Position numbers and translations under genes: made by a program. This document shows positions 1,882 to 54,495 of a stretch of 64,000 nucleotides of DNA, piece after piece (the first letter of the stretch is position 1; each line of letters begins with the position of its first letter). The DNA is from Sphingobacteriales bacterium (GTDB taxonomy: Bacteria > Bacteroidota > Bacteroidia > UKL13-3), in the NCBI GenBank assembly GCA_021298155.1, contig JAJTEN010000002.1, forward strand, positions 10,580-74,579. Direction: 5' to 3'. The notes under the pieces were generated by a model. The model saw only the letters and a list, made by a program, of their open reading frames with translations, was not told where the DNA came from and ran no database searches.

Positions 1882-4371
1882 TTAATATTTTGGACGCCCC
1901 TTTGCCACAGGTTTTTCAATCCATGGATCTTCTGGCCAAGCATGTTTGGGATACCTACGTTTAAGCTCTTTTTTAACTTCATGATAGGTACTATTCCAAA
2001 AACTTCTGAGGTCTGATGTAACCTGCACAGGTTTAAATCCGGGTGAAAGCAAATGCAAAACGACCGCCGTTTTACCTGCATTTATGTTGGGGGTATCTTG
2101 CAAACCAAATACCTCTTGTAAACGAACAGCAAGCACAGGCGTTTCGCCCCTTTCAAAATACATAAGCGCAATACCCGATCCACTTGGCACATGCATCTTT
2201 GCAGGGGCTAACCTATCTAGTTCAAGCTGTTTTTCGTAAGGTAACATGCTTAATATGGCCTGAACCAAATCTATTTTTTTCATATCATCAATGCGCTTTA
2301 CATCTTGTAAAAATGGAGTAAGCCATGAAGCCGGATTTTGTAATAGACTTTCTGTGCACACATTTGGCCAATTTTCTTCGGGGTTCCAAATGCCTAAACT
2401 CAATATCCTGTTTTGGAGTTGGGTTACCTGTTCATCAAAATCAAGTAATTGCTTGCCCTCATTTTGCAGGGCTTTACAAATCGCCTGCACTGCTACATTT
2501 TTATCTACCTGAGCCAATGGTTTAGATTGCAATACAATACTCCCAATACGCAAATCTGTACTGGCTATTAAGCCCCCTTTCCTAGTATCCCAAGTAACTA
2601 CCTCTACTGTTTTAACCAGGCTCCTTAAATCGATTGGGTTAAGCGGAGCAGCTAGAAAGATTTTACCCAAACCATCTCGCGTATCCATGTTAGCAACCGC
2701 CAACCAAGGCTCATGTGCCAAGTCGTCTTTGTGTCCAGCAGCAGCAATTTTACCATTGGCCAATTGAAATTGCGCATTATTGCCAAGCCTTGCACATGCA
2801 ATACGCTCTGGATAGGCATATGCAAGTAAGAGTCCTGTTTCAAAAGCATCATACGCCTCATTGTTTGCCTCAATTGCCAATAGCCTGCGATACGATTCTG
2901 CTACTTTTTCTATTCTACTAAATCCCTTACTAAGCATAGTATTTTGCCTAGCCCTGCGCAGCGCCTCCACCCGTAAATTAATATCTATACCCGCATCTCT
3001 TCCCAGCGGATCTCTTTCTTCGAGCACCGCAGCCACATCACAAGCCAATTGTTTGGCAGCTAAATTGGGTGCTAAAAGTAACATATGGGCAATACGCGGG
3101 TGACAAGCCAACTGGTGAATTTGTTTACCATGTGCGGTTAATTTCCCATTTTCTATGGCCCCAATTTGCACCAACACATCCATCGCCTGAGCAACATGCG
3201 CAGCAGGTGGCTGGCTGATCCAAAACAATTGATTAATATCTTGAATTCCCCATACGAATAAGTCTAATACAAGGGATGCCAAATCTGCTTCCAAAATTTC
3301 TGGCACCCGATGAGATTTTAATCGCGCTTGCGTAGCGGGTGTCCACATTCTATAGCACACACCAGCACTTAACCTACCTGCCCTTCCTGCGCGCTGGTCT
3401 GCAGAATCCTTGGCAATTTGAATGGTTTCTAATCGGCTCAAACCACTTTTAGGATCAAAGCGTTGCATTTTACTAAAGCCAGAGTCGACCACAATTTTCA
3501 CCCCTTCAATGGTTAAACTTGTTTCGGCAATGGAAGTAGCCAAAACAATTTTTCGTTTACCCCCTTTGTTGGGCATTATCGCGGCAAATTGTTGTGCTTG
3601 CGGCAACATGCCATAGAGTGGATGAATCGCAAATGTGTTGGCATCAGGCTTTAACAACTCTGCAGTCTTTCTTATTTCTCCTTCTCCTGGTAAAAAGACC
3701 AAAATATCACCTGCATGTTTTTTAGCAGATTCTAACACCAAACGTGCTGTAATCTCTGGCAACAAACGCTCATCTTGATCGCCTGCATAAAAAATATCTA
3801 CCGGATATTGTTTGCCCTCACTGGTTAAAACCGGGGCTTGTAATTGTTCATTAATAGCCTGCGCATTTAAGGTTGCGCTCATAATAAGAATGCGTAAATC
3901 TGGCCGCAAAACTTGCTGCGATTCTCTACATAATGCCAAAGATAAATCGGCATGAATGCTGCGCTCATGAAACTCATCAAAAATAACCAAGCCAATATCT
4001 TCAAGGGCGTTATCCGACTGAAGCATACGGGTTAGAATACCTTCAGTAACTACAATAATCTTATTGCTGGGCTTTACCCGATTCTCGAAGCGAATCTGAT
4101 ATCCAATACGTTCTCCAATTTCTTCACCTAAAAGCTCTGCCATTCGGTAAGCCACACTGCGTGTGGCTAATCTGCGTGGCTCTAAAACAATAATTTTTTT
4201 ACCTTGTAAATAGGGCTCATCCATTAATGCAAGCGGTAAGATAGTGCTCTTGCCGGCTCCTGGCGGGGCTTGAACCAAAAGGGTATTCTGTTTTAATAAC
4301 TGCAATTTTACATCAGGAATAATGGCAGTAATAGGCAAATTTACTTGGGCAGTATCAAATTTCAATTGCAA
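1882..4371 (-). CDS. hrpB: ATP-dependent helicase HrpB
   Basis: APPGAGKS Walker A, DEFHER, MSAT, QRAGRAGR, and the HrpB C-terminal LAVRLQEVFG...RYPKHAWPEDP. Confidence 0.95.
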   Translation of the reverse strand: MQLKFDTAQVNLPITAIIPDVKLQLLKQNTLLVQAPPGAGKSTILPLALMDEPYLQGKKIIVLEPRRLATRSVAYRMAELLGEEIGERIGYQIRFENRVKPSNKIIVVTEGILTRMLQSDNALEDIGLVIFDEFHERSIHADLSLALCRESQQVLRPDLRILIMSATLNAQAINEQLQAPVLTSEGKQYPVDIFYAGDQDERLLPEITARLVLESAKKHAGDILVFLPGEGEIRKTAELLKPDANTFAIHPLYGMLPQAQQFAAIMPNKGGKRKIVLATSIAETSLTIEGVKIVVDSGFSKMQRFDPKSGLSRLETIQIAKDSADQRAGRAGRLSAGVCYRMWTPATQARLKSHRVPEILEADLASLVLDLFVWGIQDINQLFWISQPPAAHVAQAMDVLVQIGAIENGKLTAHGKQIHQLACHPRIAHMLLLAPNLAAKQLACDVAAVLEERDPLGRDAGIDINLRVEALRRARQNTMLSKGFSRIEKVAESYRRLLAIEANNEAYDAFETGLLLAYAYPERIACARLGNNAQFQLANGKIAAAGHKDDLAHEPWLAVANMDTRDGLGKIFLAAPLNPIDLRSLVKTVEVVTWDTRKGGLIASTDLRIGSIVLQSKPLAQVDKNVAVQAICKALQNEGKQLLDFDEQVTQLQNRILSLGIWNPEENWPNVCTESLLQNPASWLTPFLQDVKRIDDMKKIDLVQAILSMLPYEKQLELDRLAPAKMHVPSGSGIALMYFERGETPVLAVRLQEVFGLQDTPNINAGKTAVVLHLLSPGFKPVQVTSDLRSFWNSTYHEVKKELKRRYPKHAWPEDPWIEKPVAKGRPKY

Positions 4372-8051: not shown

Positions 8052-9574
8052 ATGAGTCTCAAAAAAGAAATAGATAAACGAAAAACTTTTGCCATTATCT
8101 CTCACCCCGATGCAGGTAAAACTACCTTAACCGAGAAGTTTTTATTATTTGGCGGTGCTATTCAGGTGGCAGGTGCTGTAAAAAGCAACAAAATAAAAAA
8201 AACCTCTACCTCAGATTTCATGGAAATTGAAAAACAACGTGGAATTTCTGTGGCAACTTCGGTAATGGCTTTTGAATACCAAGATAAACGCGTTAATATT
8301 TTAGATACACCTGGACATAAAGATTTTGCTGAAGACACTTATAGAACGCTAACAGCAGTAGACAGTGTAATATTGGTGATTGATTCTGTAAAAGGTGTTG
8401 AGGAACAAACTAAAAGATTGGTTGAAGTATGTAGGATGCGAAACACGCCCGTTATTATTTTTATTAATAAAATGGACAGAGAAGGTAAAGACCCATTTGA
8501 TTTAATAGAAGAAATAGACCAAACCCTACACATACAAACTAGGCCACTTACATGGCCAATTAACCAGGGAGCAACCTTTAAAGGGGTTTACAATTTATTT
8601 CGAAACAGCCTAAATTTATTTGAATCAAATAAAACGCAATTGGCAGATGAGGTAATTAATATAGCCGATTTAAATGGAGATGAAATAGTTGGATACGTAG
8701 GCGAAAAAGATACCCAAAAACTACGCGAAGATGTTGAGTTAATTAATGGCGTTTTTGAACCCTTTGATGTTGAATTATACCAAAGTGGCTTATTGGCACC
8801 TGTATTTTTTGGTTCAGCCATTAATAATTTTGGGATACAAGAATTACTAGAAACGTTTTTAGAAATTGCTCCTAGTCCGCGTAACCGCGAAGCACTAGAA
8901 CGCATGGTAGCAGCAGATGAACCCAAGTTAAGTGGCTTTATTTTTAAAATTCATGCCAACTTAGATCCCAACCATAGAGATCGCATTGCCTTTATGCGCA
9001 TTTGCTCTGGCAAGTTTGAACGCAATACGTTTTATTACCATACGCGTACCAACAAAAAGCTAAAATTCCGGGCGATGTAATTGGCTTATACGATAGCGGC
9101 AACTTTAAAATTGGCGATACCCTTACAGAAGGAGAAAATCTGCATTTTAAAGGTATACCTAGTTTTTCACCCGAAATTTTTAAGGAGCTAGAGAACCGAG
9201 ATCCAATGAAAACCAAACAGCTAGAAAAAGGCATTTCACAATTAAGTGAAGAGGGCGTTGCACAGTTGTTTATTCAAAATCCCGGTAATAGAAAAATTAT
9301 TGGTACGGTAGGCGAACTTCAATTTGAGGTAATCCAATTTAGGCTTGAACACGAATACGGCGCCAAATGTGCTTTTATTCCACTCAAGTTTTGGAAGGCA
9401 TTCTGGATTACCTGTAGCGATAAAAAAATGCTGGAAACCTTCATGCACCGCAAAGCCTACGCAATTGTACATGATAAAGAAGGTAATCCCGTTTTCTTGG
9501 CAGAAAGTGAATGGAATATTACCCTATCTAAGAACGATTTCCCGGATATTGAGTTTCATACCATTTCGGAGTAA
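8052..9574 (+). pseudogene. prfC: Peptide chain release factor 3, disrupted by an internal deletion and frameshift near 9068 (or an assembly error)
   Basis: [26 protein letters not shown], and later [12 protein letters not shown]. After KKLKF the conserved [19 protein letters not shown] continues in another frame, and the intervening residues are absent. Confidence 0.88.
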
Positions 9575-9724: not shown

Positions 9725-10465
9725 CTACAATTTCGTTTGAGCCAGCAAATCAGCTTCACTAATCAAACCTTTATTGCTCCACACCAATTTGCCCTCTTTA
9801 TACAGTTCCAAATAAGGTATTCCTTCAATGCCTTTAGATTGAAGTAAATCTGGATTATCATCGGCATCAATTTTAATAAGAACCAATTTATCTTTTTTCT
9901 CTTCTGCTACCTTATCTAAAATAGGCGATAACTTTTTACATGGACCGCACCATACGGCATTAAAATCTATCAATACATACTTATCGCCATAAGATGCTAT
10001 CGTTTTTAAATAGTCGGCCTCCGTTAATCCTTTTACCATAGGCGCTCCATTTTCTGCTGAAGCTTGATTGGTAACAAGCGGTTTTTTGGCATTATTCCAA
10101 GCCATAATACCGGGCATTTCATAAATGGTTGCAAACCCACTTTTTTGCAAGGTAGCAACAGCACCTGCGCTTCTTCCGCCTGATAGGCAATAAACAAATA
10201 CCGCTTTTGTTTTGTCTAACGTAGCAATTTTTTGCTCAAAATCTGAAGCATTCACATCCATATTAATAGCATTGGCAACATGGCCAGATGCATATTCTTC
10301 AGCTGTACGCACATCAATAATCTGAGCACCCGCTGTATTTGTAATTAATTTTTCAAACTCATCGGGTGAAACCTTTCCGCCTTTGCTGCTTTGTTGCGAA
10401 CAAGCACTTACTAATACAACTGCCATAAAAAACAGTGCCCCTAATTTTTGATTTAATTGATTCAT
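9725..10465 (-). CDS. Lipoprotein, rhodanese plus thioredoxin fusion
   Basis: Lipobox VSAC; IIDVRTAEEYASGH...YCLSGGRS rhodanese; WCGPC thioredoxin. Confidence 0.9.
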   Translation of the reverse strand: MNQLNQKLGALFFMAVVLVSACSQQSSKGGKVSPDEFEKLITNTAGAQIIDVRTAEEYASGHVANAINMDVNASDFEQKIATLDKTKAVFVYCLSGGRSAGAVATLQKSGFATIYEMPGIMAWNNAKKPLVTNQASAENGAPMVKGLTEADYLKTIASYGDKYVLIDFNAVWCGPCKKLSPILDKVAEEKKDKLVLIKIDADDNPDLLQSKGIEGIPYLELYKEGKLVWSNKGLISEADLLAQTKL

Positions 10466-10466
10466 A

Positions 10467-10736
10467 TTAATTTTCCTTTTTTGTTGAAGTTAGCGCTGTA
10501 AAAGTAATGTCTTCTCTTGATTTTTCAATTTTATTTGTATGCGGAACTGCGCAACCAGATGGAGATCCACAACCAACATTGAATAGTGCCTGAGCCAAAA
10601 AGAACAAAGAGAATATTCCTAAATAAACTTCATTACTTGTTAAAGCTTGAACCAAAATCATAAGTGCTAAAACAACTTTAAAAATTTTAATAAAAGACCA
10701 ATGACTTTTTAAATTGTCAAAAGAAAATAATTTCAT
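10467..10736 (-). CDS. Small membrane protein with a Cys pair
   Basis: Two hydrophobic helices then GCGSPSGC; 1-bp gaps to both neighbours. Confidence 0.7.
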   Translation of the reverse strand: MKLFSFDNLKSHWSFIKIFKVVLALMILVQALTSNEVYLGIFSLFFLAQALFNVGCGSPSGCAVPHTNKIEKSREDITFTALTSTKKEN

Positions 10737-10737
10737 A

Positions 10738-11016
10738 TTAGGCGGTTAATTCAAAATTTACTTGTAACCAAGACCCACCATTCTCGCATTTTATTCCTTT
10801 ATTACGCAGATACGCTGTAGCTTGCAAGCTTCTTCCACCAGAAGCACAGCATAATAAAACATCTTGCATAGACTTAAACTCATCTAACCTATTAGGAAGC
10901 TCATTCAATGGAATATTGATACTTCCTGCTACATGTCCGCCCATATATTCTTGAGGCGTTCTTACATCTACAATTTTTAAATTGCCTGTGGCAAACTCTT
11001 TTGCTATATTTTGCAT
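10738..11016 (-). CDS. Single-domain rhodanese (sulfurtransferase)
   Basis: IVDVRTPQEYMGGHVAGSINIPL; CCASGGRS active-site loop. Confidence 0.92.
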   Translation of the reverse strand: MQNIAKEFATGNLKIVDVRTPQEYMGGHVAGSINIPLNELPNRLDEFKSMQDVLLCCASGGRSLQATAYLRNKGIKCENGGSWLQVNFELTA

Positions 11017-11038: not shown

Positions 11039-11083
11039 CAAATTTGATTCAGATTTTTGATCCACTGTGTAACAGATGTTGCA
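11039..11083 (-). promoter_or_regulatory. Putative Crp/Fnr-type site plus -7 promoter box for the rhodanese operon
   Basis: TGTAACAGATGTTGCA at 11068-11083, 21 bp from CAAATTTG (11039-11046); same geometry at 48652 and 49520. Confidence 0.7.
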
Positions 11084-48009: not shown

Positions 48010-48642
48010 ATGGAACTTATAAAGCAAAATTTAAATACTTATTACCCGCAATTCGACGAAGATCTTAAGCATATAATTGCCACAAATGGGCGAATCCAAA
48101 AATTCAAAGTTGGAGAAACAATTATGCAGCAGGGTCAATTTCTAAAGCATACCATGCTTATAACAAGGGGTCGTGTAAAGCTACTTTCTGAAGGCGAGGA
48201 TGGAGAAGAATTCTTCATGTATTATTTGGAAGCAGGACAAGCTTGCGCGTTAAGCTTTGTTTGTGCTCAAAAAAATAAAAAAAGCGATTTAGATGCAACT
48301 ATCATTGAGGATACAGAAGCAATATTAATTCCTATTGAACTTATGGATGAATTAATGATTAAAAATAAATCTTGGTATTATTTTGTTTTGGATACTTACA
48401 GATCAAGATTTAGAGAGCTTTTAGATGTTATAAAAAGTGTTGCATTTCACAGCATGGACGAAAGACTATCATACTATTTAGTAAAGCAAAAAAATGCATA
48501 TAAAAGTAATCTCATTACCCTAACTCATGAACAAATTGCAAACGACTTAAACTCATCACGTGTTGTTATTTCAAGATTGCTAAAACAAATGGAAACACAG
48601 AAAAAGGTTAAACTACATCGAAATGCAGTAGAAATACTTTAA
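48010..48642 (+). CDS. Crp/Fnr family transcriptional regulator
   Basis: cNMP-binding-like N-domain; HTH LTHEQIANDLNSSRVVISRLLK. Confidence 0.92.
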   Translation: MELIKQNLNTYYPQFDEDLKHIIATNGRIQKFKVGETIMQQGQFLKHTMLITRGRVKLLSEGEDGEEFFMYYLEAGQACALSFVCAQKNKKSDLDATIIEDTEAILIPIELMDELMIKNKSWYYFVLDTYRSRFRELLDVIKSVAFHSMDERLSYYLVKQKNAYKSNLITLTHEQIANDLNSSRVVISRLLKQMETQKKVKLHRNAVEIL

Positions 48643-48651
48643 TAAAAGGTA

Positions 48652-48696
48652 TGTAACATTTGTAACGCAATGAATTATTCAACAATTATACATTTG
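48652..48696 (+). promoter_or_regulatory. Putative Crp/Fnr site plus -7 box
   Basis: TGTAACATTTGTAACG (48652-48667), 21 bp, TACATTTG (48689-48696). Confidence 0.7.
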
Positions 48697-48718: not shown

Positions 48719-49513
48719 ATGGAAATTATTGGATATTTAGCCTCTGCTCTAATAGGAATATCTCTTGGGTTAATTGGTGGTGGTGGCTCAATTTTAACCG
48801 TACCTGTTTTGGTTTATTTATTGGATGTAAATGCCGTTGAAGCCACCGCATATTCCCTTTTCATAGTTGGTTCAACAGCTCTAGTTGGTGCCTACCCGAA
48901 ATATAAACAAGGCCTTGTTAATATTAAAACGGCAATTATTTTTGGTATACCATCTATCATCGCGGTATACATAACCAGAAAATTTTTAGTTCCAGCCATT
49001 CCTTCCGATCTAATTACAATAGATGGGTTCATAATAACAAAAAGTATCTTAATGATGCTCATTTTTGCAGCACTAATGGTATTTGCATCTGCAAGTATGA
49101 TTAAAGACCAAAAAGTTGTTTCGAATCCAAAAAATACTGAACAAAAATTTAACTATCCTATGATTTTATTAGAAGGGACAATAGTTGGCATGTTAACTGG
49201 TTTAGTTGGTGCAGGAGGTGGATTTTTAATTATTCCCGCACTTGTAATTTTTACAGGGCTACCCATGAAAGAAGCAGTAGGCACTTCCTTATTGATAATC
49301 GCAGCAAAATCACTTATCGGGTTTACTGGTGATTTAGGGCATTTCAACATGAATTGGAAGCTATTACTAATCGTTTCAAGTATTGCAATTGCTGGAATTT
49401 TTATTGGTAATTACCTGTCGTTGAAAATTGATGGTGCAAAACTCAAAAAAGGATTTGGCTGGTTCGTACTAATAATGGGGCTATATATTATCGTTAAAGA
49501 ACTATTTTTATAA
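48719..49513 (+). CDS. TauE/SafE (TSUP) sulfite exporter family protein
   Basis: GLIGGGGSILTVP and GLVGAGGGFLIIP repeats; multiple TM helices. Confidence 0.92.
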   Translation: MEIIGYLASALIGISLGLIGGGGSILTVPVLVYLLDVNAVEATAYSLFIVGSTALVGAYPKYKQGLVNIKTAIIFGIPSIIAVYITRKFLVPAIPSDLITIDGFIITKSILMMLIFAALMVFASASMIKDQKVVSNPKNTEQKFNYPMILLEGTIVGMLTGLVGAGGGFLIIPALVIFTGLPMKEAVGTSLLIIAAKSLIGFTGDLGHFNMNWKLLLIVSSIAIAGIFIGNYLSLKIDGAKLKKGFGWFVLIMGLYIIVKELFL

Positions 49514-49519
49514 GGCCTT

Positions 49520-49564
49520 TGTAATAAATGTAACACAGGTTTTAAAATTAAAACCTCAATATTG
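49520..49564 (+). promoter_or_regulatory. Putative Crp/Fnr site plus -7-like box
   Basis: TGTAATAAATGTAACA (49520-49535), 21 bp, CAATATTG (49557-49564). Confidence 0.6.
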
Positions 49565-49594: not shown

Positions 49595-51019
49595 ATGAAA
49601 ATAGAACAAATTTATACAGGATGTTTGGCACAAGGTGCCTATTACATCGAATCAAATGGCGAAGCAGTAGTGATAGATCCACTGCGAGAAACCACGCCAT
49701 ACATAGAGCGAGCAGCTGCAAGCGGAGCAAAAATTAAATACGTTTTCGAAACACATTTCCATGCAGATTTTGTTTCAGGTCACATAGATTTAGCAAAAGC
49801 CACTGGTGCTCAAATTGTATACGGACCCACAGAAATGAAATTAGGTTTTGATGCCATTATTGCTTCCGATAAACAAGAATTTAAGGTTGGCAATATTACT
49901 TTTACCTTATTACATACACCCGGTCATACGCTTGAAAGCTCATGCTATTTACTAAGCGATGAAAATGGTAAACAAATCGCCATTTTTACAGGAGATACCT
50001 TGTTTATAGGTGATGTTGGAAGACCAGATTTGGCCCAAAAAGTAGTGGCAAATTTAACCCAAGACATGCTTGCTTCTTATTTATTTGATTCTTTGCGCAA
50101 TAAAATTATGCCTTTAAACAATGACTTAATTGTTTATCCTGCCCATGGCGCAGGTTCTGCTTGCGGGAAAAATATGAGTAAAGAAACTTTTGATACCCTT
50201 GGCAACCAAAAAGAAACAAATTATGCCTTGCGTGCCAACATGACTAAAGAAGAATTCATTAAAGAAGTGATTACTGGTTTAATGCCACCACCTGCCTATT
50301 TCCCTAAAAATGTTTTAATGAATATTGAAGGGTACGATAACATTGAAGAAGTATTGTCTAGAGGAACCCAAGCCTTAACACCAAACGGATTTGAAGCAGC
50401 TGCTAACGAAACAGGAGCGCTAATTTTAGATACACGCAAACCTCAAGATTTTGCCAAAGGTTTTATCCCAAACGCTATTAATATTGGTATTGATGGAGGT
50501 TTTGCTCCTTGGGTTGGAACTTTAATTCCAGATATTAAACAAAACATACTTATTGTAGCAGAGCTTGGAAGAGAAATGGAAATTGTAACGCGTTTGGCAC
50601 GTGTAGGTTACGACCACGCTATTGGCTATTTAGCAGGTGGTTTTGAAGCTTGGGCAAATGCTGGCAAAGAAATAGATAACATCACATCTATAAGTGTAGA
50701 AGAATTTGCAGCGGCAGAACAAGCCGATCCAACAATCCATATTTTAGATGTTAGAAAAATCAGCGAATACCAATCAGAACACCTAATTAACGCCATAAAC
50801 GCTCCTTTAGATTACATAAATGAGAGCATGCTTAAAGTGGATAAATCTAAAACTTATTTTGTGCATTGCGCAGGTGGTTACCGCTCTATGATTTTTGCTT
50901 CTATATTAAAAGCAAGAGGATACACAAATTTAATTGACGTAGCTGGTGGGTTTAAAGCCATAAAAGATTCCCAAAAGTTTAAGGTTTCAGAATACGTTTG
51001 TCCTTCCACTTTATTGTAA
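49595..51019 (+). CDS. MBL-fold persulfide dioxygenase with two rhodanese domains (CstB-like)
   Basis: ETHFHADFVSG, HTPGHT, FTGDTLF, PAHGAGSACG; HCAGGYRS. Confidence 0.9.
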   Translation: MKIEQIYTGCLAQGAYYIESNGEAVVIDPLRETTPYIERAAASGAKIKYVFETHFHADFVSGHIDLAKATGAQIVYGPTEMKLGFDAIIASDKQEFKVGNITFTLLHTPGHTLESSCYLLSDENGKQIAIFTGDTLFIGDVGRPDLAQKVVANLTQDMLASYLFDSLRNKIMPLNNDLIVYPAHGAGSACGKNMSKETFDTLGNQKETNYALRANMTKEEFIKEVITGLMPPPAYFPKNVLMNIEGYDNIEEVLSRGTQALTPNGFEAAANETGALILDTRKPQDFAKGFIPNAINIGIDGGFAPWVGTLIPDIKQNILIVAELGREMEIVTRLARVGYDHAIGYLAGGFEAWANAGKEIDNITSISVEEFAAAEQADPTIHILDVRKISEYQSEHLINAINAPLDYINESMLKVDKSKTYFVHCAGGYRSMIFASILKARGYTNLIDVAGGFKAIKDSQKFKVSEYVCPSTLL

Positions 51020-51054
51020 AATATTTCAGTAAAAAAATAAATGTGATAAATAAT

Positions 51055-51618
51055 ATGTTAGAACTTTTAAAACAACCATGGCCATGGTATATAAGTGGTC
51101 CAATCATCGGAATTTCTATTCCACTATTATTGATATTTGGAAACAAAATACTGGGCATTTCTTCCTCCTTTAGGCATACCTGTGCAGCCGTAGCTCCATT
51201 TAATATCCAATTTTTGAAATATAATTGGAAATCTGAAATATGGAATATGTTTTTTGTGCTTGGAATTTTTATTGGCGGTTTTGTTGGCGGAGTATTACTA
51301 AATAATGGCGAAGCAGTTAAGATATCAGAAGCAACTATTTCAGATATAAAAAGTTTAGGCATAAACTCATTTGATGGACTAATTCCTTCCGATGTATTCA
51401 ATTGGAATACTTTACTATCTGTCAAAGGAGTATTTATAATGGTATTTGGTGGGATAATGATAGGTTTTGGATCTCGCTATGCAGGAGGTTGTACTTCCGG
51501 ACACGCAATTATGGGTATTTCTAATCTTCAATGGCCTTCATTAATTGCAGTCATATTCTTCTTTATCGGTGGTCTTCTCATGACACATTTTATTGCTCCA
51601 TTTATTTATCAACTATAA
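51055..51618 (+). CDS. YeeE/YedE family sulfur-compound transporter subunit
   Basis: PWPWY..G, GFGSRYAGGCTSGH. Confidence 0.9.
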   Translation: MLELLKQPWPWYISGPIIGISIPLLLIFGNKILGISSSFRHTCAAVAPFNIQFLKYNWKSEIWNMFFVLGIFIGGFVGGVLLNNGEAVKISEATISDIKSLGINSFDGLIPSDVFNWNTLLSVKGVFIMVFGGIMIGFGSRYAGGCTSGHAIMGISNLQWPSLIAVIFFFIGGLLMTHFIAPFIYQL

Positions 51619-51632
51619 TTATCCTGAAACAA

Positions 51633-52043
51633 ATGAAAAATATTAGATTTTTATTAATAGGTATTCTTTTTGGAACTGTACTTACAAAATCAGAGGCTGT
51701 TTCATGGTTTAGAATTCAAGAAATGTTTCGCTTTCAAAGTTTTCATATGTATGGTATCATTGGGTCAGCCATTGCTGTAGGTATGCTATCTATTTGGCTC
51801 ATAAAAAAGTTCAAAATAAAGGCTGTTAATGGAGAAGAAATTAAAATAGCAGATAAAGAATTTAATAAAGGACAAATAATTGGTGGAACAATATTTGGAA
51901 TGGGCTGGGCCTTATCTGGGGCATGTCCAGGACCACTCTATTCCTTAGTTGGATCAGGATATTATTTAATATTTGTTGTTATTATAAGTGCCATTTTTGG
52001 TACTTGGTTATATAGTTATTTTAAACCAAAACTGCCACATTAA
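51633..52043 (+). CDS. YeeE/YedE family partner subunit
   Basis: SWFRIQEMF, FGMGWALSGACPGP. Confidence 0.88.
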   Translation: MKNIRFLLIGILFGTVLTKSEAVSWFRIQEMFRFQSFHMYGIIGSAIAVGMLSIWLIKKFKIKAVNGEEIKIADKEFNKGQIIGGTIFGMGWALSGACPGPLYSLVGSGYYLIFVVIISAIFGTWLYSYFKPKLPH

Positions 52044-52078: not shown

Positions 52079-53080
52079 ATGCGCTCTTTAAAGATATTTT
52101 TGCTCATTGTTCTTGGCGTTGCAATGGCTATCGTATTACTCTTTAATCGCCAATTTAACTCCAAAAATATAGAAGAAAAATCTGGTAGAACTGAAACAAT
52201 AACGTCTAATACATTATGGCAGGCGCCTGTTGAATCTCTATTACACAAGGAGCCTAATGCTGAAGAAATTTTATATGGTAAAGAGCTTATCAAAAACACC
52301 TCCTTATATCTAGGTAAAAAGGGAAGTGTTAAAGCCATTAGCAATGGCATGAATTGTCAAAATTGCCATTTAGAGGCAGGAACTAAAGCCTGGGGCAATA
52401 ATTATGCAGCAGTTTATAGTACTTATCCAAAATTTAGAGAACGCTCTGGCGCCATAGAAACAATCTCTAAAAGAGTAAACGACTGCATTGAACGCAGCCT
52501 AAATGGTGAAGCCTTAGATACAAACAGCAAGGAAATGCTGGCCATAATAAGTTATATCAAATGGCTCGGCTCAGGACTAAAAAAGGGTGAAAAGCCCAAT
52601 GGAAGTGGTATTATAGAATTACCCTTTTTAGACCGGGAAGCCAGCCCCAAAAAAGGAAAAATTGTGTACGAATCTAAATGCCAAAGTTGTCACCAACCCA
52701 ATGGCGAAGGCATACTCAATTCCGACCAAAAGAGTTATACATTTCCACCTTTATGGGGCGCTCATAGTTATAATTCTGGTGCTGGATTATATAGGTTATC
52801 TAGGTTTGCTGGATATGTAAAAGCAAATATGCCTTTAGGTGCAAGTTATAGCGCGCCTCTACTAACAGATGAAGAAGCTTGGGATGTAGCCGCATTTGTT
52901 AATACACAGAAAAGACCGAGCAAAAATATAAATAAAGACTGGCCAAATCTTGCTGGCAAGCCAATTGATCACCCTTTCGGACCTTTTACAGATGGTTTCT
53001 CAGAAAAACAACACAAGCTTGGTCCGTTTGAACCCATTAAAATCAAAAGAGCTGAAATGAAAAAAAATAAAACAACGTGA
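52079..53080 (+). CDS. tsdA: Diheme c-type cytochrome, thiosulfate dehydrogenase/tetrathionate reductase TsdA
   Basis: CQNCH and CQSCH; catalytic Cys in RVNDCIERSLNG; FPPLWG.HSYNSGAG; ANMP. Confidence 0.85.
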   Translation: MRSLKIFLLIVLGVAMAIVLLFNRQFNSKNIEEKSGRTETITSNTLWQAPVESLLHKEPNAEEILYGKELIKNTSLYLGKKGSVKAISNGMNCQNCHLEAGTKAWGNNYAAVYSTYPKFRERSGAIETISKRVNDCIERSLNGEALDTNSKEMLAIISYIKWLGSGLKKGEKPNGSGIIELPFLDREASPKKGKIVYESKCQSCHQPNGEGILNSDQKSYTFPPLWGAHSYNSGAGLYRLSRFAGYVKANMPLGASYSAPLLTDEEAWDVAAFVNTQKRPSKNINKDWPNLAGKPIDHPFGPFTDGFSEKQHKLGPFEPIKIKRAEMKKNKTT

Positions 53081-54495
53081 AAAATCTATTAATTCTCATT
53101 TCATTTTTATTAATTGGTTTCTCTAAATTAAAAGCCCAAGTTGCCCAACCATATATTCATCATACAGAGCGCGATAAGAATAAAAAAGATACAAATACAC
53201 TGCAAGCATTCTTTAGAAATGGAGAGTTTTACGGACATGCCAGATACTACTTTATGGCAACAGATAACGACCATGATTTAAAGGATTTTTATGCCAATGC
53301 TTTTGGAATGGGAATTGGATACGAAACTGGAAAATTTAAAGGTTTTCAAATTGGCATAAGTGGTTTTTTTATTTATAATCTATTTTCATCAGATTTCAGT
53401 ATAACAGACGCAAAAACAGGAGTAGGTAGTCGATACGAACTTGGGCAATTTGATATGACAAATCCGCGAAATAAAACGGATATGGACAGATTGGAAGATT
53501 TGTATTTGAAATATTCCTCCAACAACTCATATCTTAAATTTGGGAAACAACATATTAGAAGTCCTTTTATAAACCCTCAAGATGGACGCATGCGACCAAC
53601 TTTAATAGAAGGTGCACTTTTTGAATGTAATGAAGTGAAAAACTTAAAACTAGAGGGCGGATGGATTTTTGGAATATCACCGCGCAGCACGGTGAGTTAT
53701 TTTGGCATTGGCGAGTCTATGTCAATTTTCCCACCAGGGATAGGGTTAGATGGTAAGAAATCTCAATATCCAGGAAATATAAGCAGTAATGCGATTTATT
53801 TAGGCAGTGCAACCTTTCAACTTCCAATCAACGCCAAATTACAACTATTAAATCAACACATTGATCAAGTTTTAAATAGCTCTTTTGCCCAATTAAATGG
53901 AGATTTTAAATGGAAAAAAAATAAAAATATCTTTTATGGCGCCCAATATATTCAGCAACATGCGATTGGAAATGGGGGCAATGTTAACCAAAACCTAAGT
54001 TATGTTAGAAAAGGAAATGTAGCTCGAACCTTTGGTTTTAGGTTAGGCATAGAAGAAAAAAAGAACTGGCAAATACTGCTAAATTATAATCGCATTACGA
54101 AAGATGGAAGGTATCTCATGCCACGCGAATGGGGGAGAGATCCTTTCTTTACCTTTATGGCCAGAGAGCGGAATGAGGGGTATGCAGATGTACATGCAAT
54201 AAATGTTGTAGCAAATAAAATTTTAGGCTCAAGTGGTTTTAAAATTGAAGCTGCTTATGGGCACTTTTATCTCCCAGATATAAACAATGTTGCATTAAAC
54301 AAATATGCTATGCCATCCTATTTTCAAGGGAATGTAGATTTACGATATACCTTCAGAGGATTCTATAGTGGTTTAGAAGCCCAATTTTTATATGTTTATA
54401 AAGGTCAATTAGGCAATGTATACGAAAATGATAAAAATGTTATTAATAAAGTAAATATGTCTTTGTACAACTTTATATTGAATTACCATTTTTAA
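53077..54495 (+). CDS. OprD-like outer-membrane porin
   Basis: Signal peptide, PFINPQDGRMRP, terminal ILNYHF; 4-bp overlap with tsdA. Confidence 0.75.
   Translation: MKNLLILISFLLIGFSKLKAQVAQPYIHHTERDKNKKDTNTLQAFFRNGEFYGHARYYFMATDNDHDLKDFYANAFGMGIGYETGKFKGFQIGISGFFIYNLFSSDFSITDAKTGVGSRYELGQFDMTNPRNKTDMDRLEDLYLKYSSNNSYLKFGKQHIRSPFINPQDGRMRPTLIEGALFECNEVKNLKLEGGWIFGISPRSTVSYFGIGESMSIFPPGIGLDGKKSQYPGNISSNAIYLGSATFQLPINAKLQLLNQHIDQVLNSSFAQLNGDFKWKKNKNIFYGAQYIQQHAIGNGGNVNQNLSYVRKGNVARTFGFRLGIEEKKNWQILLNYNRITKDGRYLMPREWGRDPFFTFMARERNEGYADVHAINVVANKILGSSGFKIEAAYGHFYLPDINNVALNKYAMPSYFQGNVDLRYTFRGFYSGLEAQFLYVYKGQLGNVYENDKNVINKVNMSLYNFILNYHF

Follow-up and report, generated by a model that had tools for sequence, protein, structure and literature searches.

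Operators at a conserved 21-nt distance from the -7 box mark a candidate Crp/Fnr-type activator of reactive-sulfur genes in a Sphingobacteriales bacterium

The analysed stretch of DNA (the window; 64,000 nucleotides, positions 10,580 to 74,579 of contig JAJTEN010000002.1 in the Sphingobacteriales bacterium assembly GCA_021298155.1) carries three 16-mer sites that resemble Crp/Fnr-type operators. The first, TGCAACATCTGTTACA, lies on the minus strand (11068..11083, read directly from 11083 to 11068) and is followed 21 nt downstream by CAAATTTG (11039..11046, minus), which agrees with the Bacteroidota -7 box TAnnTTTG at 5 of the 6 fixed positions. The second, TGTAACATTTGTAACG (48652..48667, plus), starts 10 nt past the stop codon of a Crp/Fnr-family regulator gene (48010..48642, plus) and has a perfect TAnnTTTG box, TACATTTG (48689..48696, plus), 21 nt downstream; the third, TGTAATAAATGTAACA (49520..49535, plus), stands at the same distance from a weak box, CAATATTG (49557..49564, plus), that retains 4 of the 6 fixed positions. 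Direct reading confirmed that the three 16-mers, each 21 nt from a Bacteroidota -7 box, are where the preliminary description had placed them.

Behind the first site, a minus-strand operon opens with a 92-aa single-domain rhodanese (10738..11016, ATG at 11016; Pfam Rhodanese, E 7.4e-14), followed by a predicted membrane protein of 89 aa that contains the motif CGSPSGC (10467..10736) and a 246-aa rhodanese-thioredoxin fusion (9725..10465; Pfam Rhodanese and Thioredoxin). Pfam and NCBIfam searches returned no match for this membrane protein, whose gene separates the two rhodanese genes; a YgaP-like transmembrane protein occupies a similar position in other genomes. On the plus strand, the second site precedes a 264-aa predicted anion exporter of the TauE/SafE family (48719..49513, ATG at 48719; Pfam TauE, E 5.5e-43), and the third precedes a 474-aa protein in which an MBL-fold dioxygenase-like domain is joined to rhodanese (49595..51019, ATG at 49595; Pfam Lactamase_B and two Rhodanese stretches). 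This MBL-rhodanese protein is a candidate CstB/Blh-like persulfide dioxygenase, with a partial match to NCBIfam Blh that stays below the cut-off. The same-strand run continues with two YeeE/YedE-type sulfur-transport half-proteins (50998..52043; open reading frames 50998-51618 and 51531-52043, starts uncertain; Pfam Sulf_transp and DUF6691), whose matches to NCBIfam TsuA are weak and below cut-off, and with a 333-aa SoxA/TsdA-type dihaem cytochrome c (52079..53080; Pfam SoxA-TsdA_cyt-c and Cytochrom_C), and it ends at a 472-aa OprD-like porin (53077..54495; Pfam OprD, E 3.7e-12). The Pfam families of the three first genes (Rhodanese, TauE, and Lactamase_B with Rhodanese) agree with the earlier claim that each site precedes a rhodanese or sulfur-transport gene.

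In a metatranscriptome run, 6% of the sampled words were present and 25 of 33 contigs were just 90-95% alike; two short near-identical pieces both fell in the YeeE region, and such contigs cannot show starts. Elsewhere in the window, prfC (RF3; 8052-9574, plus) is broken: a 342-aa open reading frame stops at 9080, and the sequence for the C-terminal domain is picked up in a different frame at 9206-9574. The stretch normally found between both parts seems to be missing, through either an assembly error or a real pseudogene.

The sites had been described as approximations of the palindrome TGTAAC-N4-GTTACA. They are operator-like and conserved, but sites 2 and 3 carry GTAAC, not GTTAC, in the promoter-proximal half, so that the consensus becomes TGTWAC-N4-GTWACA. 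Because GTWAC is its own near-complement, a direct repeat (TGTAAC-N3-TGTAAC) is indistinguishable from a dyad; we set the direct-repeat reading aside and prefer the dyad, since symmetry holds at operator positions 1-2/15-16 and 7/10.

The TAnnTTTG box used by sigma-A of Flavobacterium psychrophilum spans -12 to -5, according to the accessible part of the published report (PMC9723704). Taking this position, which was measured in another genus, together with the 21-nt spacer, the spacer would cover -33 to -13 and the operator -49 to -34, with its centre at -41.5, as in class II promoters; leaders of 18, 18 and 26 nt are predicted. By reading, a TTTG -33 element is absent from all three promoters, and the proximal half GTWACN lies at about -39 to -34. 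In relatives, the -7 box of the MBL-rhodanese promoter is GAATATTG or GATAATTG. The missing -33 element and the weak MBL-rhodanese -7 box fit activator dependence of these putative promoters.

A search of the window with the pattern TGYAAY-N4-GTWAC-N23-ANNWTTG gave 3 matches, where 100 shuffles averaged 0.01; this comparison is circular because the pattern was derived from the same three sites. Across the 2.50-Mb assembly (G000), the same pattern matched 5 times at spacing 21 and 0-1 times at each other spacing from 12 to 32 (3 in total over 20 spacings). The two additional 21-nt matches lie at C22:26058, ahead of genes for an MFS transporter and a cytochrome c peroxidase, and at C53:38926, which is intragenic; the latter and its G002 counterpart, both within a coding region, were taken as chance and rejected as operators. 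When up to one mismatch to TGTWAC-N4-GTWACA was permitted, the genome contained 84 oriented instances; a loose -7 box follows 7 of them at 21 nt, whereas the 23 spacings outside 20-22 average ~1.9. Allowing 2 mismatches in G000 left no spacing peak (13 at 21 nt, 11-41 at others), and therefore only strong sites are recognisable. In the genome-wide scan with spacing constraint that had been proposed as a check, the strict pattern peaks at 21 nt, and a PWM at a loose threshold of 8 bits returned 685 matches with the spacing peak absent. One further instance, C48:5114 (TGTAACAAATGCAACA), was discarded as a regulated site: a -7 box is absent at 20-22 nt, and the next gene start is 27 nt downstream.

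Of the 24 genomes sampled from the genus, 10 encode orthologues of the regulator that are 59-88% identical, and more distant relatives are present elsewhere in the class. In the orthologous loci, the tauE and MBL-rhodanese promoters retain the 16-mer, again precisely 21 nt ahead of an xAxxTTTG box, and the 21 spacer bases diverge in sequence while the spacer length stays. Sites were also counted in relatives' loci (both counts take in a few duplicate loci from the same genomes). When a good -7 box was required and up to 2 mismatches were allowed, 47 sites had a spacing of 21 nt and 8 a spacing of 22 nt, and no other spacing between 12 and 31 had more than 4; with the limit at 1 mismatch, 20 sites had 21 nt and none had 16-20 or 22-24 nt. 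These comparisons support strong constraint on the distance from operator to -7 box.

This exactness of spacing also bears on whether the regulator might bind the same sites as a repressor, occluding the -33 region until a signal releases it, in the manner of CstR, SqrR and BigR. Most known RSS sensors repress, as far as the consulted sections of a recent review go (PMC13467558), and an operator spanning about -49 to -34 could block polymerase. For repression, however, overlap would suffice and base-exact spacing would be needless, yet 47 sites stand at 21 nt and no more than 8 at each other spacing. Moreover, in all three promoters the TTTG -33 element is absent in place of the operator's proximal half, the weak MBL-rhodanese -7 box is as expected of activator-dependent promoters, and NtcA and CRP class II sites share the -41.5 position. 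We consider repression quite improbable, and class II activation remains our preferred reading.

The rhodanese-operon site is aligned and retained in G001, G005, G008 and G009, and it also occurs with 21-nt spacing in G002, G003 and G019; in G004, G015 and G017, a paralogous regulator (36-37% identical) adjoins the rhodanese-thioredoxin genes and has sites of its own at 21 nt. An unbiased pattern scan of five whole related genomes produced 12 matches, compared to 0 with the reversed pattern: five belong to tauE, one to MBL-rhodanese and one to rhodanese (both in G005), one to DsbD and one to a Pyr_redox_2-rhodanese fusion of the CoA-disulfide/persulfide-reductase type (both in G002), two to orthologous T9SS-tail proteins, and one is intragenic. 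The sites in relatives' loci precede 53 distinct first genes, of which 49 encode TauE (19), rhodanese (15), MBL (9), YgaP-like transmembrane (5) or YeeE (1) proteins and the rest a methyltransferase (1), a DUF6132 protein (1) or proteins of no family (2). This tally is biased, because the regulator or the rhodanese-thioredoxin gene was the anchor for retrieving most of the loci. The regulon had been described as split over loci 37 kb apart; the window sites bear this out, and G005 shows the same split, its rhodanese site lying 35 kb from the regulator. G008, with sites before rhodanese, DsbD and oxidase genes, was considered as a case of sites without a regulator and then dropped as neither support nor counter-example; its regulator region is unassembled, because a contig end cuts the MBL-rhodanese gene at residue 4. 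G006, G010 and G007 have an additional TGTAAC-N4-GTTRCA in the promoter of the MBL-rhodanese gene, 28 bp upstream of the -41.5 site (L005 about 3025-3068, minus; L006 3014-3057, plus; L009 3017-3060, plus), which would make a tandem operator near -69.5.

Beyond the window, the regulon probably takes in DsbD and a CueO-like multicopper oxidase encoded on other contigs, judging from sites retained in relatives. The DsbD gene is preceded by TGTAACCTGAGTTACT at C22:299, with 21 nt to TAAATTCG; the full site is retained in G005, G008 and G002, and just its proximal half in G001 and G009. In the last two genomes (L107, L108), tandem GACCAAAGACAAAC-like repeats replace the distal operator half and GTTACT remains. 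The oxidase, which has a T9SS tail, has TGTAACAAAAGTTACA at C4:89842, with 20 nt to TATATTCG, and this site is retained in G001, G002, G008 and G009. The site of the MFS-cytochrome c peroxidase pair was not conserved in G001, G002 and G009 and is a candidate only. The MFS orthologues of these three genomes (L103, L104, L106) have a different 16-mer, TTATCAWWTGTWAAA, exactly 21 nt before an xxxxTTTG box; these promoters adjoin a different Crp-like gene, and Crp-type activators of the group may follow the 21-nt rule in general. The regulon had been described as one of sulfur genes: the three window promoters do precede such genes, but the conserved DsbD and oxidase sites mean that it is not purely so.

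The regulator is a 210-aa protein of the Crp/Fnr family, whose only cysteines are C79 and C85. It matches the N-terminal cNMP-binding-type beta-barrel PF00027 with 36.6 bits (cut-off 27.5) and the C-terminal HTH_Crp_2 domain PF13545 with 33.7 bits (cut-off 27), and 2853 homologues were found at E <= 1e-10 in the protein collection. Its AlphaFold2 model (mean pLDDT 86) has a long central helix at residues 120-164, and Foldseek aligned it with 4ev0_D (TM 0.76) and HcpR (9day_B, TM 0.73), as well as with CRP/CAP, NtcA and 3dv8. The recognition helix, S-S-R-V-V-I-S-R, places Arg, Val and Arg (R184, V185 and R189) at CRP positions 180, 181 and 185, which contact DNA, according to the portion consulted of a published comparison (PMC1274295). 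At the position of CRP E181, 107 of 120 homologues have Val and 13 have Glu. Site sequence follows the helix: at the variable position, regulators with R-V have G in 0 of 48 half-sites (A, T or C instead), and those with S-R-E-V/A have G in 20 of 24 (TGTGAC...GTCAC), with one exception, the T-H-R-E-A subgroup, which has A in 14 of 14.

The genome encodes only two further Crp-like proteins, on contigs C35 and C26. The C35 protein (L034 1036-1746) resembles FNR, has cysteines clustered towards its N terminus (C8, C11, C22 and C36), and is probably the oxygen sensor of the genome. Either of these, or an alternative sigma factor using GTAAC as its -35 element, might be the true reader of the 16-mers. 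Other branches of the Crp/Fnr superfamily do use GTAAC-type half-sites, HcpR2 being an example in the consulted portion of its description (PMC1274295), and the different 16-mer that stands at the same 21 nt in the relatives' MFS promoter, beside a different Crp-like gene, makes the architecture generic. Against such readers, the C35 helix is of the FNR type, E-T-V-I-R, the C26 HTH differs from that of the window regulator, the sites adjoin orthologues of the window regulator in every orthologous locus, and the site sequence covaries with its helix. An alternative sigma factor has the dyad symmetry of the element against it, and the 22 nt from the GTAAC core to the -7 box are unlike the spacing of ECF sigma factors, which is 16-17 nt. 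A reader other than the adjacent regulator appears highly improbable, and the 48010-48642 protein is the best candidate for, and the likely binder of, the three operators.

Of the earlier proposal that the 48010 regulator is an activator acting on split loci, the part concerning binding is favoured indirectly by adjacency and helix-site covariation, and the activating role is read from the -41.5 position. Taking the evidence together, we think it probable that the 48010-48642 protein is a class II activator of a reactive-sulfur gene set through the three operators, with sulfane sulfur as the inferred signal. In this model, a regulator dimer would bind TGTWAC-N4-GTWACA, take at -41.5 the place otherwise held by a -33 element, contact RNA polymerase and switch the promoter on. 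Promoter 1 would drive the rhodanese, the membrane protein and the rhodanese-thioredoxin fusion, promoter 2 would drive TauE, and promoter 3 would drive the persulfide-dioxygenase-like MBL-rhodanese protein, YeeE/YedE, the TsdA-like cytochrome and the porin. The signal would be reactive (sulfane) sulfur acting on the only two cysteines of the regulator, and modification of C79/C85 would act as a ligand would, at the site where CRP holds cAMP.

The cysteine motif that prompted the sulfur interpretation in the preliminary description, CxxxxxC (CALSFVC), corresponds to C79 and C85 and proved to be an invariant pair: among 120 homologues that are at least 56% identical, all 120 have both residues and 106 have no other cysteine. 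In a wider set of 37 more distant relatives, C79 is present in all 37 and C85 in 32, and the five without C85 still carry sites before sulfur genes. The pair aligns with the ligand-pocket segment of CRP and NtcA, and the sole stretch of the model with pLDDT below 50, residues 82-86 (window 48253-48267), is located between both cysteines. In the consulted sections of the review (PMC13467558), the known dedicated RSS sensors (CsoR, ArsR and Fis families) work through a pair of cysteines and target SQR, PDO, CoA persulfide reductase and sulfurtransferases, and Acinetobacter Crp is said to become persulfidated. A literature search for a Crp/Fnr-type RSS sensor, limited to partial texts, found none in print. 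Sulfane-sulfur sensing by the regulator is plausible.

The regulator was not found in the same-genus genome G016, which is 81% complete. There, in the locus L118 1072-4313, an ArsR-type regulator of 97 aa is encoded upstream of PDO-rhodanese, thioredoxin, rhodanese and OsmC genes; it has a cysteine at position 47 and a C-terminal KCIEKCDC. The system is likely of the BigR/SqrR type, and it suggests that ArsR-type and Crp/Fnr-type regulators fill the same role in the genus.

The same regulator and operators could instead serve another signal, either general thiol-oxidative or disulfide stress that closes a C79-C85 disulfide, or a small molecule, sulfide or another, bound by a haem or metal that the cysteines hold. 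With conserved sites before the genes for DsbD and the CueO-like oxidase, and one before the MFS-cytochrome c peroxidase pair in G000 alone, the signal could be a broader thiol or oxidative stress. Haem is bound by the Bacteroidota Crp/Fnr proteins HcpR and PgRsp, according to published abstracts, and the regulator model resembles the HcpR structure 9day_B. However, TauE, MBL-rhodanese, rhodanese, YgaP-like and YeeE proteins make up the regulon core in all genomes examined, joined in G002 by the CoA-disulfide-reductase-rhodanese fusion, a gene set equal to that of known persulfide sensors in the review's consulted sections (PMC13467558). Furthermore, no catalase, peroxiredoxin or hcp gene turned up downstream of a site in the scans made. 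We regard a different signal as unlikely, though less so than either repression or a different reader, and sulfane sulfur remains the preferred signal.

A bolder extension is that these proteins form a fourth structural class of dedicated RSS sensor, the first for Bacteroidota, in the form of a Crp/Fnr-fold activator with a cysteine-switch pocket; we hold this to be a tentative possibility, somewhat short of an even chance. Here, sulfane sulfur would persulfidate or bridge the pocket cysteines, replacing the nucleotide ligand, and the covalent change would set the DNA-binding helices, so that the dimer at -41.5 would recruit polymerase to promoters without a -33 element. If true, activation by a CRP-fold protein through a covalent cysteine switch would be a new sensing mechanism. 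Bacteroidota are abundant in lakes, soils and guts. The consulted sections of the review, which assign the dedicated sensors of hydrogen sulfide-derived reactive sulfur to three families (CsoR, ArsR, Fis), do not deal with this phylum (PMC13467558). The 21-nt rule offers a clear comparative example of class II activation, if such it is, at the unusual -7/-33 promoters of Bacteroidota, and a simple regulon predictor for the phylum.

Among known systems, NtcA shares the Crp/Fnr fold, and in the alignment its helix R-V-T-V-T-R matches R-V-V-I-S-R of the window regulator. NtcA binds GTA-N8-TAC centred near -41.5, according to the accessible part of the source (PMC3898017); the operator described here, TGTA-N8-TACA, is a subset of that motif with the same inferred centre. 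The regulator is not NtcA, scoring 45.1 bits on TIGR03697 against a cut-off of 244.95, and unlike NtcA it holds two invariant cysteines in its ligand pocket and has sulfur rather than nitrogen genes as its putative targets. Moreover, the core promoter here is the Bacteroidota -7 box TAnnTTTG, in contrast to the -10 hexamer of class II CRP, FNR and NtcA promoters.

The HcpR2 branch of Bacteroides and Clostridia is similar in operator type (predicted motif GTAAC-N4-GTTAC), superfamily and occurrence in Bacteroidota. In the consulted portion of Rodionov et al. 2005 (PMC1274295), the residue of HcpR2 at the position of CRP E181 is Pro, and HcpR2 controls hcp. The window regulator carries Val at that position and its sites stand before tauE, MBL-rhodanese and rhodanese genes; it is not HcpR2. 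Among solved structures, the best sequence match is PDB 3dv8 (E 1.4e-18), an uncharacterised Crp/Fnr protein of Eubacterium rectale that has both cysteines at aligned positions but is about 25% identical and carries the helix H-R-E-V-I-T-R.

In function, the closest parallels are CstR (CsoR family), SqrR/BigR (ArsR family) and FisR (a sigma-54 activator), which likewise have a conserved cysteine pair. Their regulons resemble the present one in persulfide-dioxygenase-rhodanese, sulfurtransferase and TauE genes and, in a relative, the CoA-disulfide-reductase-rhodanese fusion; tauE also adjoins cstR in S. aureus. The window regulator differs from all four in its Crp/Fnr fold, outside the CsoR, ArsR and Fis families, and from CstR, SqrR and BigR in being a probable activator, as its -41.5 site implies, and in its phylum, Bacteroidota; it may nevertheless work in the same way.
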